The notes below the pieces were generated by a model that had not been told where the DNA came from, searched no databases, and saw only the letters and a program-made list of their open reading frames with translations. From NCBI RefSeq assembly GCF_003334385.1, contig NZ_QOWN01000001.1: DNA of 64,000 nt. One strand, written 5' to 3'. A program made the translations under genes and the position numbers. The stretch is from Escherichia coli (GTDB lineage Bacteria > Pseudomonadota > Gammaproteobacteria > Enterobacterales > Enterobacteriaceae). Position 1 is the stretch's first letter. Each line of letters starts with the position of its first letter. Shown piece by piece: positions 2,590-40,557 of this stretch.

Positions 2590-3402
<813 letters not shown>

Positions 3403-24272: not shown

Positions 24273-25919
24273 TCAGGATTTTTTCTTCTCGCGGCTATGC
24301 AGGCCACGTTTTTCCAGACCACGGTAAATCAGCTGCTGCTGAATAATGGTTACCAGGTTGCTGACGATATAGTACAGCACCAGACCTGACGGGAACCACA
24401 GGAAGAACACGGCGAAGATGACCGGCATAAAGGTCATGATCTTCTGCTGCATCGGGTCGGTCACTGTGGTCGGCGACATCTTCTGAATGAAGAACATCGT
24501 TACGCCCATCAGGATCGGCAGGATGTAGTACGGGTCCTGTGCCGACAGGTCGTGGATCCACAGTGCAAACGGTGCCTGACGCAGTTCAACGGAACCCATC
24601 AGCATGTAGTACAACGCCAGGAAGATTGGCATCTGGATCAGCAGCGGGAAGCAGCCGCCCAGCGGGTTAACCTTCTCAGCTTTGTACAGCGCCATCATTT
24701 CCTGGCTGATACGCTGTTTGTCATCGCCCAGACGCTCACGCATTGCCTGAATCTTCGGCTGCAACATACGCATCTTCGCCATGGAGGTGTACTGCGCTTT
24801 GGTCAGCGGGTACATGATGCCACGAACGATAAAGGTGATGATGATAATGGAGAAGCCCCAGTTACCCACAAAGCTATGGATCCATTTCAGCAGTTTGAAC
24901 AGCGGCTGAGAGATGAACCACAACCAACCGTAATCAACGGTCAGATCCAGGTGCGGAGCAACAGCTGCCATTTTGTCCTGGATTTCCGGGCCAACCCACA
25001 GGGTGCTGTTCATCGCGCCAGTCTGACCAGGCTGAACCAGTACCGGCTGAGATTTATAGCCGATAGCGGCGATGCCGTTACCCAGATTAGCGGTATAGAA
25101 GTTGTTGGTACCGTCGTTATGCGGGATCCACGCCGTCGCGAAATACTGTTGCAGCATCGCCACCCAACCACCTTTCGAAGAGATGTTCAGGTTTTCGTTA
25201 TCGGCAATGGTATCGAACTTGTATTTCTCATACTTCTCGTCAGGCGTGGAGTACGCCGCGCCACGGAAGGTGTGCAGTGCGAAGTTGCTGCTTCCGGTAT
25301 CGAGATGCGGTGGCAGAGTGATGGATTGCTTCAACTGACCAAACGAGGAGATTTCCAGCGGTTTCTCGCCAGCGTTCTGCACGTTGTAGTTGACGTTGAC
25401 AGCGTAATCACCACGTTTCAGGACAAACGTTTTGGTAAACGTGTTGCCTGCCGCGTCGGTATACGTCATCGGCACCTGCAGTTCGTTTTGACCTTCAGCC
25501 AGCACATAAGCGTCTTTTTCAACGTTATACAGCGGACGCGGGCCGTTAGCCGGGTTATCCGGGCCATCACGACCGGTCAGACCGCTCTGTGCCTGATAAA
25601 TAAACTGCGGTGAAGTTTCCAACAGCTGGAACGGCTGGGTAGAGTTCAGCTCTTTCGGGTAAGCAGGCAGCAGAGCTTGCTCAACATCACCACCACGGGT
25701 GTTGATGGTCAGATCAAGCACGTCGGTCTTAACCGAGATCAGTTTCCCCTGGCCACTGGCCGGTACGCCCTGGTCGGCGGCGCTACCCGCTGCGGTGGTC
25801 GTTGTCTGCGTGGTCTGTTGGGCCTGAGGTTGCGGGTTTTTATCCTGCTCCCAGGCTTGCCAGATCATGAAAGACACGAACAGCAAAGCGATGACTAAAA
25901 GATTGCGTTGCGAATCCAT
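24273..25919 (-). CDS. yidC: Membrane protein insertase YidC
   Basis: 548 aa; N-terminal TM segment, large periplasmic domain, C-terminal polytopic core; rpmH-rnpA-yidD-yidC-mnmE cluster. Confidence 0.95.
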
Positions 25920-34900: not shown

Positions 34901-35557
34901 TTATTGGTTTACTGCATATACAACCAGAAATTGCAGCGGTGCAGTAATGATGTCCAGCGTAACAGTCACTGGCAGTAATGCTGCGGAAACACCATCCGGA
35001 ATGCCTCTGGGTGAATAGTATTCATAAAATCGCACTTTAAATGGATGGTAGAACGCCATCACCTTTGAGTAATCCATGTTTTTATTTTTCTCATGGATTG
35101 TGCCTTTTAGGTTTTCCAGTGACCTGGTACAGTGTTGAACACCACAGGCAAAACCATAATGCGTTGCCAGTGCCTTTTCTTCTTCGTTATTCCAGTAGTA
35201 GTAAAGCGATATTGTGCCGGTAAATTTCTTTTTCCCCGCATTTAAAACAAATCTTGCGTCATCGGCAACCTGAATATTGTGCCGGTTAAGTGCTGGATCA
35301 TTGAGCATCTTAACGATGTCATCGGCACCATCAGTGATAAGGTAATCCAGCGATTCCCCTACAAAAACATAGCCTTTTGTTCCATTACTATCTTTTGCCT
35401 GCGATAGCCCAGTGATGGTGTCTGACTGCGATTGATACTTTCCTGAACTACCCTTTGCGGTATGGGAAACCAGAGCATACGAGATACAGCCTGAAAGCAT
35501 CAGCGCCAGTGGGAATAAACCGGCAGCCTTAAAAAATCCCTTAAAATTCAACTTCAT
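34901..35557 (-). CDS. yidX: Putative lipoprotein YidX
   Basis: 218 aa from ATG at 35557 ([24 protein letters not shown]... lipobox LSGC); the ORF-track N-terminal extension to 35674 is probably not translated. Confidence 0.8.
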
Positions 35558-35695
35558 GATTAATCCTTTAAACGAGTAGCTAAGCCGTTGAAAGCATACT
35601 CTTCTTTCCCTCCTGTTTAGCGCCTGATATCCCTTTTCAGATTTCTGCCCGACGCATGTCATTTTTTTATGCATTGTTCTTTTTGTGATCTAAAT

Positions 35696-35725
35696 TGTAG
35701 TACAACAATATAAGTTTGTACTACA
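35696..35725. promoter_or_regulatory. Candidate DgoR operator: perfect 9-bp inverted repeat
   Basis: tgtagtaca-N12-tgtactaca about 110 bp upstream of the dgoR ATG, in the yidX-dgoR divergent region. Confidence 0.6.
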
Positions 35726-35834
35726 TTACACGCACGGCAAACGCGAACGTCATCACGCTGGTACTACAAAGTTGCCGCGTTATGCATCGATCGGGGTAAA
35801 GTAGAGAAGAACATACAGAGCACAAGGACTCTCC

Positions 35835-36524
35835 ATGACTCTCAATAAAACCGATCGCATTGTCATTACGCTGGGTAAACAGATCGTTCACGGCAAATAC
35901 GTGCCAGGCTCGCCGCTTCCGGCTGAGGCGGAACTCTGTGAGGAGTTTGCAACCTCGCGCAACATCATCCGTGAGGTGTTCCGTTCGCTGATGGCGAAGC
36001 GGCTGATTGAAATGAAACGTTATCGCGGGGCGTTTGTGGCACCGCGTAACCAGTGGAATTACCTCGACACTGACGTACTGCAATGGGTGCTGGAAAATGA
36101 CTACGACCCACGGCTTATCAGTGCCATGAGCGAAGTGCGAAATCTGGTGGAACCGGCGATTGCCCGTTGGGCAGCAGAGCGCGCGACTTCCAGCGATCTG
36201 GCGCAGATTGAATCGGCGCTGAACGAGATGATTGCCAACAATCAGGACCGCGAAGCGTTTAACGAAGCGGATATTCGCTACCACGAGGCGGTGCTGCAGT
36301 CGGTGCATAACCCGGTGTTACAGCAACTTAGCATTGCGATCAGTTCGCTGCAGCGGGCGGTTTTTGAACGAACCTGGATGGGCGATGAGGCCAACATGCC
36401 GCAAACGCTCCAGGAACATAAGGCGCTGTTCGATGCGATACGACATCAGGACGGCGATGCGGCAGAGCAGGCGGCGCTTACCATGATCGCCAGCTCGACA
36501 CGAAGGTTAAAGGAAATCACATGA
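35835..36524 (+). CDS. dgoR: GntR/FadR-family repressor of the D-galactonate operon
   Basis: 229 aa; N-terminal winged HTH; first gene of dgoRKADT. Confidence 0.92.
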   Translation: MTLNKTDRIVITLGKQIVHGKYVPGSPLPAEAELCEEFATSRNIIREVFRSLMAKRLIEMKRYRGAFVAPRNQWNYLDTDVLQWVLENDYDPRLISAMSEVRNLVEPAIARWAAERATSSDLAQIESALNEMIANNQDREAFNEADIRYHEAVLQSVHNPVLQQLSIAISSLQRAVFERTWMGDEANMPQTLQEHKALFDAIRHQDGDAAEQAALTMIASSTRRLKEIT

Positions 36525-37399
36525 CAGCTCGCTACATCGCAATTGACTGGGGATCGACCAATCTGCGCGCCTGGCTTTATCAGGGCGACCACTGCCTGGA
36601 GAGCAGGCAATCAGAAGCAGGCGTCACGCGCCTGAACGGAAAATCTCCGGCTGCGGTGTTAGCAGAAGTCACGACCGACTGGCGTGAAGAGAAAACGCCA
36701 GTGGTAATGGCAGGAATGGTTGGCAGCAACGTCGGCTGGAAAGTTGCACCGTATTTATCTGTTCCTGCCTGTTTTTCGTCTATTGGCGAACAATTAACGT
36801 CAGTTGGCGACAATATCTGGATTATTCCCGGATTATGTGTCTCTCATGACGATAACCACAATGTGATGCGCGGCGAAGAAACACAATTGATCGGCGCGCG
36901 AGCTCTGGCTCCTTCCTCTCTTTATGTCATGCCCGGAACCCATTGCAAATGGGTGCAGGCCGATAGCCAGCAAATCAACGATTTTCGCACCGTGATGACC
37001 GGTGAATTACATCATTTACTGTTAAATCACTCATTGATTGGCGCAGGTTTGCCGCCGCAGGAAAACTCTGCCGATGCCTTCACAGCTGGCCTTGAGCGTG
37101 GTCTTAATACGCCCGCCATATTGCCGCAGCTTTTTGAAGTTCGCGCCTCGCATGTGCTGGGAACACTTCCCCGCGAACAGGTCAGCGAATTTCTCTCTGG
37201 TTTGTTGATTGGCGCAGAGGTCGCCAGTATGCGCGACTATGTGGCCCATCAACACGCCATCACCCTTGTCGCCGGAACATCGCTGACCGCGCGCTACCAG
37301 CAAGCCTTTCAGGCGATGGGTTGCGACGTGACGGCGGTGGCGGGCGACACGGCATTTCAGGCTGGTATAAGGAGCATCGCTCATGCAGTGGCAAACTAA
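36521..37399 (+). CDS. dgoK: 2-dehydro-3-deoxygalactonokinase
   Basis: 292 aa; start overlaps the dgoR stop by 4 nt. Confidence 0.92.
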   Translation: MTARYIAIDWGSTNLRAWLYQGDHCLESRQSEAGVTRLNGKSPAAVLAEVTTDWREEKTPVVMAGMVGSNVGWKVAPYLSVPACFSSIGEQLTSVGDNIWIIPGLCVSHDDNHNVMRGEETQLIGARALAPSSLYVMPGTHCKWVQADSQQINDFRTVMTGELHHLLLNHSLIGAGLPPQENSADAFTAGLERGLNTPAILPQLFEVRASHVLGTLPREQVSEFLSGLLIGAEVASMRDYVAHQHAITLVAGTSLTARYQQAFQAMGCDVTAVAGDTAFQAGIRSIAHAVAN

Positions 37400-38000
37400 A
37401 CTCCCGCTGATCGCCATTTTGCGCGGTATTACGCCCGACGAGGCGCTGGCGCATGTTGGCGCGGTGATTGACGCCGGGTTCGACGCGGTTGAAATCCCGC
37501 TGAATTCCCCACAATGGGAGCAAAGCATTCCCGCCATCGTTGATGCGTACGGCGACAAGGCGTTGATTGGCGCAGGTACGGTACTGAAACCTGAACAGGT
37601 CGATGCGCTCGCCAGGATGGGCTGTCAGCTCATCGTTACGCCCAATATCCATAGTGAAGTGATCCGCCGTGCGGTGGGCTACGGCATGACCGTCTGCCCC
37701 GGCTGCGCGACGGCGACCGAAGCCTTTACCGCGCTCGAAGCGGGCGCGCAGGCGCTGAAAATATTTCCGTCATCGGCTTTTGGTCCGCAATACATCAAAG
37801 CGTTAAAAGCGGTATTGCCATCGGACATCGCAGTCTTTGCCGTTGGCGGCGTGACGCCAGAAAACCTGGCGCAGTGGATAGACGCAGGTTGTGCAGGGGC
37901 GGGCTTAGGCAGCGATCTCTATCGCGCCGGGCAATCCGTAGAGCGCACCGCGCAGCAGGCAGCAGCATTTGTTAAGGCGTATCGAGAGGCAGTGCAATGA
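37383..38000 (+). CDS. dgoA: 2-dehydro-3-deoxy-6-phosphogalactonate aldolase
   Basis: 205 aa; overlaps dgoK by 17 nt. Confidence 0.92.
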
Positions 38001-39145
38001 AAATCACCAAAATTACCACGTATCGTTTACCTCCCCGCTGGATGTTCCTGAAAATTGAAACCGATGAAGGCGTGGTCGGTTGGGGCGAGCCCGTGATCGA
38101 AGGCCGCGCCCGTACGGTGGAAGCGGCAGTTCACGAGCTGGGTGACTATTTGATTGGTCAGGATCCATCGCGCATCAATGACTTATGGCAAGTGATGTAT
38201 CGCGCCGGATTCTATCGCGGCGGTCCGATCCTGATGAGCGCCATCGCCGGGATTGACCAGGCGTTATGGGATATCAAAGGTAAAGTGCTGAATGCGCCGG
38301 TCTGGCAACTGATGGGCGGCCTGGTTCGCGACAAAATTAAAGCCTACAGTTGGGTTGGCGGCGATCGTCCGGCGGATGTTATCGACGGCATTAAAACGCT
38401 ACGCGAAATCGGCTTCGATACCTTCAAACTGAACGGTTGTGAAGAACTGGGGCTAATTGATAACTCCCGCGCGGTAGATGCGGCGGTTAACACCGTGGCA
38501 CAAATTCGTGAAGCTTTTGGCAATCAGATTGAGTTTGGTCTTGATTTCCACGGTCGCGTCAGCGCGCCGATGGCGAAAGTGCTGATTAAAGAACTGGAGC
38601 CGTATCGCCCGCTGTTTATTGAGGAGCCGGTGCTGGCGGAACAAGCCGAATACTACCCGAAACTGGCGGCACAAACGCATATTCCACTGGCGGCGGGTGA
38701 ACGCATGTTCTCACGCTTCGATTTTAAACGCGTGCTGGAGGCAGGTGGTATTTCGATTCTGCAACCGGATCTCTCCCACGCGGGCGGTATTACCGAATGC
38801 TACAAAATCGCCGGAATGGCAGAAGCCTATGACGTGACCCTTGCGCCGCACTGTCCGCTCGGACCGATTGCACTGGCGGCTTGCCTGCATATCGACTTTG
38901 TTTCCTATAACGCCGTACTTCAGGAACAAAGTATGGGAATTCATTACAACAAAGGCGCGGAGTTACTCGACTTTGTGAAAAACAAAGAAGACTTCAGCAT
39001 GGTCGGCGGCTTCTTTAAACCGTTAACGAAACCGGGCTTAGGCGTGGAAATCGACGAAGCTAAAGTGATTGAGTTCAGTAAAAATGCCCCGGACTGGCGT
39101 AATCCGCTCTGGCGTCATGAAGATAACAGCGTAGCAGAGTGGTAA
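37997..39145 (+). CDS. dgoD: D-galactonate dehydratase (enolase superfamily)
   Basis: 382 aa; overlaps dgoA by 4 nt. Confidence 0.93.
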
Positions 39146-39264
39146 TTCCTGCCACGTAAGCCCCTCATCGGGCACTAAAACAGCAATACAAAAATATAAC
39201 CCTCTGTAAATTACAGGGCATGGTGAGCGGCTTCGCTATGCCCAAAATCTGGAGAAAGCTCGCT

Positions 39265-40557
39265 ATGGATATTCCCGTTAATGCAGCAAAGCCGGGGCGT
39301 CGGCGTTATCTGACGCTGGTGATGATCTTTATTACGGTAGTCATTTGTTATGTCGACCGCGCCAACCTGGCCGTGGCTTCCGCCCATATTCAGGAAGAGT
39401 TCGGCATTACCAAAGCGGAAATGGGCTATGTATTTTCGGCCTTCGCCTGGCTTTATACGCTATGTCAGATCCCCGGCGGTTGGTTTTTAGATCGCGTAGG
39501 TTCTCGCGTGACTTATTTTATTGCGATATTTGGCTGGTCAGTGGCGACTTTATTCCAGGGCTTTGCCACGGGCTTAATGTCATTAATTGGTCTGCGCGCG
39601 ATAACCGGTATTTTCGAAGCGCCTGCTTTCCCGACCAATAACCGGATGGTGACCAGCTGGTTCCCGGAACATGAACGCGCTTCTGCCGTTGGTTTTTATA
39701 CGTCTGGTCAGTTTGTCGGTCTGGCGTTTCTGACGCCGCTGCTGATCTGGATTCAGGAGATGTTGAGCTGGCACTGGGTGTTCATTGTCACTGGTGGTAT
39801 CGGCATTATCTGGTCGCTGATTTGGTTTAAGGTTTATCAGCCGCCGCGCCTGACCAAAGGTATCAGCAAAGCTGAACTGGATTACATTCGTGATGGCGGC
39901 GGTCTGGTGGATGGTGATGCGCCGGTGAAGAAAGAGGCGCGTCAGCCGTTAACAGCCAAAGACTGGAAACTGGTGTTCCATCGTAAACTGATCGGCGTTT
40001 ATCTTGGGCAATTTGCGGTGGCTTCTACACTGTGGTTTTTCTTAACCTGGTTCCCGAACTATTTAACCCAGGAAAAAGGAATCACGGCGCTGAAAGCAGG
40101 CTTTATGACCACGGTGCCATTCCTCGCGGCGTTTGTCGGCGTCCTGCTCTCTGGCTGGGTAGCGGATCTGCTGGTACGTAAGGGCTTTTCACTGGGCTTT
40201 GCGCGTAAAACGCCGATTATCTGCGGCTTGCTGATCTCCACCTGCATTATGGGCGCTAACTACACTAACGATCCGATGATGATTATGTGCCTGATGGCGC
40301 TGGCATTCTTCGGTAACGGTTTTGCTTCGATTACCTGGTCGCTGGTTTCTTCTCTGGCACCGATGCGCCTGATTGGTTTAACCGGCGGCGTGTTTAACTT
40401 CGCCGGTGGTCTGGGCGGCATCACCGTTCCGCTGGTGGTGGGGTACCTGGCGCAGGGTTACGGTTTCGCACCTGCACTGGTTTATATCTCCGCCGTCGCG
40501 TTGATTGGCGCGCTCTCTTATATCCTGCTGGTGGGCGATGTGAAGCGCGTTGGCTAA
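39265..40557 (+). CDS. dgoT: D-galactonate:H+ symporter (MFS)
   Basis: 430 aa from ATG at 39265 ([22 protein letters not shown]...); ORF-track start at 39220 is upstream. Confidence 0.9.

Follow-up and report, generated by a model that had tools for sequence, protein, structure and literature searches.

We identify the perfect inverted repeat in front of dgoR, with near certainty, as the known operator of the E. coli dgoRKADT operon, in which two 11-bp palindromes of GntR/FadR type, IR1 and IR2, lie next to each other. The repeat lies in a stretch of Escherichia coli DNA of 64,000 nucleotides, in the following called the window, to which all positions refer. The operator itself is already known, as its mapping and its use in EMSAs go back to 2018-2019, and its confirmation adds nothing new. 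The same intergenic region carries a third palindrome of this type, box 3, which could be a functional third DgoR operator, kept weak by selection, phased with IR1 and IR2 and adjoining a weak downstream promoter; we put this possibility at somewhat below even. Box 3 is not a new discovery either, as it was predicted in 2015, and only its role is perhaps new.

Genomic Context

The repeat is located in the intergenic control region between the divergently oriented yidX (34901-35557, minus strand) and dgoR (35835-36524, plus strand). This region comprises 277 bp (35558-35834) as judged from sequence and annotation, and the borders given for it in an earlier, sequence-only reading of the window agree with the starts of yidX at 35557 (minus strand) and of dgoR at 35835. 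Complete E. coli chromosomes match a 601-bp query around the site at 100% and have yidX and dgoR annotated as its flanks; the RefSeq annotation of yidX was transferred by coordinates from such an identical locus. According to the transferred annotation, dgoR is the first gene of dgoRKADT and follows immediately 3' of the operator. The structural genes under this operator, dgoK (36521-37399), dgoA (37383-38000), dgoD (37997-39145) and dgoT (39220-40557), together span 36521-40557 on the plus strand and were assigned from the ORF list and the transferred RefSeq annotation. The Shine-Dalgarno sequence of dgoR (AAGGA, 35824-35828, plus strand) was read from the sequence and is conserved in the alignments.

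RefSeq annotation, Pfam and a PDB match agree on dgoR as the gene of a GntR/FadR-family repressor of its own operon. Its product combines a winged-helix GntR domain (PF00392, 7e-14) with an FCD domain (PF07729, 3e-27) and gives a full-length match (E = 4e-149) to PDB entry 7C7E, a solved DgoR chain that, according to the literature, represents the C-terminal domain. This is the only DgoR entry in the PDB, which holds no DgoR-DNA structure. On the other side of the region, the yidX frame remains open upstream to an ATG at 35674, corresponding to a protein of 257 aa, while RefSeq gives 218 aa starting from 35557. The extra 117 bp of open frame (35558-35674) show low conservation across species (0.47).

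Composition of the Inverted Repeat

As the sequence-only reading had reported, a 9-bp inverted repeat, tgtagtaca-N12-tgtactaca, occupies 35696-35725, and its letters and positions are exact. The left arm TGTAGTACA (35696-35704) is perfectly complementary to the right arm TGTACTACA (35717-35725), with the 12-nt spacer acaatataagtt (35705-35716) separating the two. In a repeat search the arms grow one base inward to 10 nt (TGTAGTACAA, 35696-35705, and TTGTACTACA, 35716-35725), with 100% complementarity and 10 nt in between. Measured against 2000 dinucleotide-preserving shuffles of the 277-bp intergenic region (spacer of at most 30 nt), the bare inverted repeat is only moderately unusual, perfect repeats of at least 9 nt occurring in 3.3% and of at least 10 nt in 1.0% of the shuffled regions. 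Its motif content, unlike the bare repeat, raises the element far above chance: when one mismatch is allowed, TTGTANTACAA matches three times in the intergenic region, whereas 5000 shuffles of this region contain at most one match each (one in 1.8%, three never).

Outside the intergenic region, the 64-kb window has just one more match to TTGTANTACAA with at most one mismatch, ATGTAGTACAA at 24604-24614, which carries one mismatch. It was rejected as a DgoR box, as it lies inside an ORF of 548 aa (24273-25919, minus strand) and 1.7 matches are expected per window, i.e., the chance level. A direct repeat (D1, beginning with TTATGCAT, at 35667 and 35780) is not conserved across species and was likewise treated as a chance occurrence.

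The functional symmetry of the element is not that of 9 nt-N12-9 nt. Each arm is the core of an 11-bp palindrome of its own, with the box form TTGTA-N-TACAA. IR1 (TTGTAGTACAA, TTGTA-G-TACAA, 35695-35705) is perfect and holds the left arm, and IR2 (TTGTACTACAT, TTGTA-C-TACAT, 35716-35726) has one mismatch, holds the right arm and overlaps the -10 element of the promoter. The long-range repeat is seen because the centres of these nearly identical palindromes are separated by 21 bp and the middle base of IR1 (G) is complementary to that of IR2 (C). A solitary third 11-bp copy at 35759-35769, the above-mentioned box 3, confirms the 11-bp box as the repeating unit.

Operators of the FadR subfamily follow the consensus TKGT/ACMA with GT-N3-AC in a short A/T-rich palindrome, and DgoR is named as an example. 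This motif is present in each of the boxes (TTGT-AGT-ACAA in IR1, TTGT-ACT-ACAT in IR2 and TGGT-ACT-ACAA in box 3). The sequence-only reading had attributed FadR-subfamily symmetry to the repeat as a whole. That symmetry is indeed found within each 11-bp box as GT-N3-AC, but it is absent between the 9-nt arms, which are 21 bp apart and do not fit a FadR-type geometry with half-sites a few base pairs apart in a palindrome of about 11-17 bp.

Identity with the Published DgoR Operator

Window positions 35690-35711 reproduce, letter for letter, the IR1 oligonucleotide published by the Chaba laboratory (CTAAATTGTAGTACAACAATAT). The literature calls IR1 a perfect inverted repeat and IR2 one with a single mismatch, and TTGTACTACAT shows exactly that mismatch. 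By Sort-Seq, a DgoR-dependent repressor site has been placed at -140 to -110 from the dgoR ATG (Belliveau et al., 2018, PNAS), which corresponds to 35695-35725 with the ATG at 35835. DNA-affinity mass spectrometry on the repressor stretch returned DgoR as the most enriched factor, and the expression shift at -140 to -110 is gone when dgoR is deleted and likewise in D-galactonate (Belliveau et al., 2018). A 55-nt probe with both repeats binds DgoR in EMSA with an apparent KD near 0.5 uM and is released by D-galactonate; the literature documents binding of purified DgoR and its release by D-galactonate by EMSA, microscale thermophoresis and affinity chromatography. The primary footprint and the mutagenesis of the dgo operator are those of Singh et al. 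(2019, J Bacteriol 201:e00281-18), considered here as presented in later papers of the same laboratory. As far as the accounts drawn on here extend, the literature has shown that DgoR binds at the site, that binding depends on both repeats and is relieved by D-galactonate, and that CRP activates, and it has defined the -10 element.

The published model has two DgoR dimers on two closely spaced inverted repeats that overlap the promoter. In solved GntR-DNA complexes, each monomer sits on one half of a short palindrome, and by analogy with FadR one DgoR dimer would occupy each box. The earlier proposal that the divergent yidX/dgoR region, which precedes dgoRKADT, holds the DgoR operator is borne out by the 100% match of the locus, the identity of the IR1 oligonucleotide and the Sort-Seq site. 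The published DgoR footprint falls on 35695-35725 and not elsewhere in the intergenic region, where it would have contradicted the proposal.

Conservation across Species

One genome per species was scanned, which gave 80 loci with DgoR identities of 79-99% and 79 usable sequences, one from the window and 78 from other species. Of these, 73 have a perfect IR1. IR2 has exactly one mismatch in 72 and is perfect in a single one, and the spacing between IR1 and IR2 is 21 bp in every sequence. Box 3 is never perfect; it carries one mismatch in 67 and two mismatches in 10 of the 79 sequences, and it follows IR2 at a distance of 43 bp in 70 sequences and of 42-44 bp in all 77 carriers (at most two mismatches). 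When conservation is expressed as the mean column fraction with the majority base over the 79 sequences, IR1 reaches 0.99, IR2 0.95 and box 3 0.92, compared to 0.59 for the spacer between IR1 and IR2 and 0.52 for the leader segment that precedes box 3 (35728-35754). The boxes are thus 92-99% conserved vs. 52-59% for the spacers. The left CRP half-site with its flank (35680-35691) scores 0.95. Within the species, the control regions of three divergent E. coli strains have all their substitutions outside the boxes.

Some genomes depart from this picture. About 400 of the 5426 complete E. coli genomes give no match to the control region. In E. coli TB06052 the whole dgoRKADT operon, the counterpart of window positions 35558-40557, is deleted (locus 3040-3290), and only a short pseudogene fragment, apparently a remnant of the dgoT 3' end, is present between yidX and cbrA. 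A sequence titled Chryseobacterium sp. 18061 (CACSKA010000004.1) contains an enterobacterial-type dgoR (90% amino-acid identity) with an unchanged IR1 and IR2 layout and a degenerate box 3 (3 mismatches); this assembly is probably contaminated or mislabelled. In Shigella flexneri (SF3769), IR1 reads TTGTAGCGCAA, with two mismatches in an otherwise near-invariant box (Suvorova et al., 2015, S1 File), which hints at a possible decay of dgo regulation in this lineage.

Promoter Organization and Regulatory Model

A consensus scan of 35450-35950 gave no sigma-70 promoter and no terminator, which is consistent with weak, activator-dependent promoters but is no positive proof of them. The promoter elements were therefore taken from the published Sort-Seq data. 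Belliveau et al. (2018) name TACATT, between -120 and -100, as the wild-type -10 element; it corresponds to 35722-35727 (plus strand), in IR2, and belongs to the D-galactonate-inducible promoter P1. With a 17-bp spacing and a class II CRP geometry, a weak -35 element (AGTACA) would be located at about 35699-35704 and the start near 35733-35735 on the same strand. At -160 to -140, the same study found a CRP site that contains TGTGA and is read as class II, its right half lying over the -35 element. In the window, the CRP site of the inducible promoter would cover 35681-35702 (plus strand), when extended to 22 bp based on the CRP consensus, with a left half TGTGA at 35684-35688 and a poor right half TTGTA at 35695-35699 that overlaps IR1. 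The sequence TTTTTGTGATCT of this site is 95% conserved over the 79 sequences. Its centre, deduced from TGTGA, is 35691.5 and would lie at -41.5, the distance of a class II site, relative to a presumed start around 35733, which was derived from the -10 position.

The left CRP half-site further contains a Dam site (GATC in TGTGATC, 35687-35690), which is situated 5 bp from IR1 and is invariant in an 8-sequence alignment. In Salmonella, a hemimethylated GATC in a putative CRP site of dgoR is reported to cause an ON/OFF heterogeneity of dgoR expression (PMC7708049). A35688 of the window occupies the position of that hemimethylated GATC, -147 relative to the dgoR ATG.

Sort-Seq also revealed a separate RNAP site at -30 to -70 from the ATG (Belliveau et al., 2018), i.e., 35765-35805 in the window. 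The candidate hexamers TTGCCG (-35, 35772-35777) and TAAAGT (-10, 35797-35802), separated by an unusually long spacer of 19 bp, match this site and would constitute a weak downstream promoter P2 (35772-35802, plus strand). TAAAGT is contained in the block GGTAAAGTAG (35795-35804), which is conserved at 0.93 over the 79 sequences in an otherwise variable leader. The dgoR leader also includes a mini-ORF of five codons (ATG CAT CGA TCG GGG TAA, 35782-35799), the ATG of which is absent in most other aligned species; it is probably meaningless.

In the regulatory model that emerges, the distance of 21 bp between the centres of IR1 and IR2, equal to two helical turns, would bring both palindromes to the same face of the DNA. 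Following the published model, one DgoR homodimer would sit on each palindrome and place one of its winged-helix domains on each 5-bp half-site. IR1 would overlap the right half of the class II CRP site as well as the weak -35 element, and IR2 overlaps the -10 element TACATT. Because IR1 covers the CRP half-site and the -35 element and IR2 the -10 element, bound DgoR is expected to exclude both CRP and RNA polymerase from P1. The exact -35 element, the start site and the geometry of this steric exclusion are deduced from the layout. Once D-galactonate has bound to the C-terminal FCD domain, DgoR changes its conformation and leaves the DNA, and CRP-cAMP then activates the transcription of dgoR and the catabolic genes. 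Box 3, judged by its conservation, may contribute a DgoR site of low affinity to the leader, beside the weak P2.

A Third DgoR-Type Box in the Leader

Box 3 (TGGTACTACAA, 35759-35769) was found by motif search and is a predicted site, a palindrome of the DgoR type in which one position is mismatched. Measured between centres, it stands 43 bp from IR2 and 64 bp from IR1. The three centre distances of 21, 43 and 64 bp approximate 2, 4 and 6 helical turns. It adjoins the candidate -35 element of P2. The flanks of box 3, checked by eye, have no motif likeness 21 bp to either side, indicating that the box is solitary. The position of its mismatch depends on the lineage: in 16 sequences of the Escherichia/Salmonella/Citrobacter/Klebsiella type it affects the left half (T[G/A]GTACTACAA), and in 51 sequences, from most other lineages, the right half (TTGTACT[G/T]CAA). 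Such an always imperfect box with a lineage-varying mismatch suggests that box 3 may be held at weak affinity by selection.

The three E. coli boxes found here are exactly those in the table of Suvorova, Korostelev and Gelfand (2015, PLoS One, S1 File), who predicted the DgoR sites CTAAATTGTAGTACAACAATA, TAAGTTTGTACTACATTACAC and CACGCTGGTACTACAAAGTTG. The last of these is their third predicted E. coli site and has equivalents in seven other enterobacteria; the triplet is also listed for Salmonella, Klebsiella, Enterobacter, Cronobacter, Shigella and E. fergusonii. Compared to these computational predictions, the layout is now seen in 78 species, with a fixed spacing of 21 and 43 bp and a graded box quality. 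On the experimental side, Sort-Seq reported a DgoR-dependent shift only at -140 to -110 and none at box 3 (Belliveau et al., 2018), and the papers up to 2025 keep the two-repeat model, without box 3. In the literature to 2026 we found no experimental third site, no looping and no DgoR-DNA structure. Binding of DgoR to box 3 in vivo is a prospect to which we give a little less than an even chance. If it occurs, box 3 could set the basal level of autoregulated DgoR or stabilize the repression complex, and the accepted dgo model with two inverted repeats would be incomplete across the enterobacterial species sampled.

Alternative Interpretations

A single long inverted repeat, with arms of 9-10 nt and a spacer of 10-12 nt, could in principle be recognized as one unit, because it extrudes as a cruciform or because one DgoR oligomer takes the two arms, 21 bp apart, for its half-sites. 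The complete complementarity of the arms over 10 nt would fit such a unit, as would the central bases that create the mirror symmetry (G in IR1, C in IR2), which are almost invariant in the 79 sequences. Yet each arm forms a full palindrome by itself, with a FadR-type GT-N3-AC, the solitary box 3 is equally well conserved and lacks a partner at 21 bp, and the distant DgoR orthologues of Chromohalobacter and Vibrio are listed with one 11-bp palindrome (Suvorova et al., 2015). In solved GntR-DNA complexes, moreover, the two halves of a short palindrome are each occupied by one monomer. Between IR1 and IR2, the letters of the spacer vary freely and its length is fixed, which points to two phased protein sites and not to a particular hairpin loop. 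We therefore regard recognition as one long unit as very improbable. A role of the repeat in RNA, as a hairpin, attenuator or terminator, is more improbable still. A stem of 10 bp with a loop of 10 nt is possible in principle, but the repeat is positioned upstream of and across the -10 element of P1, hence mostly outside the dgo transcript, and yidX is transcribed away from it. Searching 35500-35900 against Rfam gave no match at E <= 1, folding of a 28-species alignment of the downstream leader predicted neither a consensus structure nor any pairs, and the single-sequence folding energy of the leader is ordinary compared to shuffles (z = -0.64). On these grounds, together with the lack of a terminator in the consensus scan, a structured RNA element was rejected. 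An accidental inverted repeat in an AT-rich intergenic region can be dismissed with equal assurance. The fraction of shuffled regions in which a perfect repeat reaches 9 nt or more (3.3%) would leave some room for it, but the boxes are near-invariant in 79 sequences while their flanks drift, three motif copies never occur together in the shuffles, and DgoR binding has been published directly; it is the conservation of the boxes and these binding data that discard chance.

The two-palindrome operator itself may be part of something larger. IR1, IR2 and box 3 could form one higher-order DgoR repression complex, arranged on one helix face or in a small loop, an extension that we consider plausible without favouring it. 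It would imply that the operator is larger than the published element and that box 3 sets basal DgoR via the downstream promoter, to which we attach the same guarded expectation. The occurrence of box 3 in 77 of the 79 sequences at 42-44 bp from IR2 speaks for such a complex, and so do the proximity of the distances of 21, 43 and 64 bp to whole pairs of helical turns and the persistence of at least one mismatch in box 3, in a half-site that differs by lineage (left in 16 sequences, right in 51). Box 3 in addition abuts the RNAP site at -30 to -70 and was predicted as a DgoR site in 2015. Against it, the DgoR-dependent shift in Sort-Seq is confined to -140 to -110, DgoR shows normal binding to a 55-nt probe that lacks box 3, and papers up to 2025 describe the two repeats as enough. 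The conservation of box 3 could also reflect the overlapping downstream promoter or another factor. The operator made up of IR1 and IR2 is the reading that we retain with near certainty, and the participation of box 3 is kept as a tentative addition.

The control of D-galactonate use by DgoR is relevant to gut colonization. In E. coli evolving in the mouse gut, loss-of-function mutations in dgoR are recurrent and under frequency-dependent selection, and natural DgoR variants alter growth on D-galactonate. A functional box 3 would refine a well-studied, textbook-style repression circuit.

Comparison with Known Systems

The element is the same as the E. coli dgo IR1/IR2 described before (Singh et al., 2019; Belliveau et al., 2018; Arya et al., 2021; NAR 2025 gkae1299). 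DNA, position, flanking genes and repressor are identical, and the sole difference is the 9-N12-9 description given in the sequence-only reading. The three dgo boxes have the same GT-N3-AC core as the operators of FadR, PdhR, LldR, ExuR and GlcC (TKGT-N3-ACMA), and DgoR likewise shares the GntR and FCD architecture of FadR-type regulators. Whereas many FadR-type regulators make use of a single palindrome, dgo has two, possibly three, phased sites across one promoter.

Multi-operator repression, as in lac (O1/O2/O3) and gal (OE/OI), combines a strong primary operator with weaker, phased auxiliary sites. The dgo region resembles these systems in having a strong operator and a weaker phased site, a resemblance only, with the cooperation of box 3 being putative. 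The distances of box 3 from the other two dgo boxes (43-64 bp) are short for loops.
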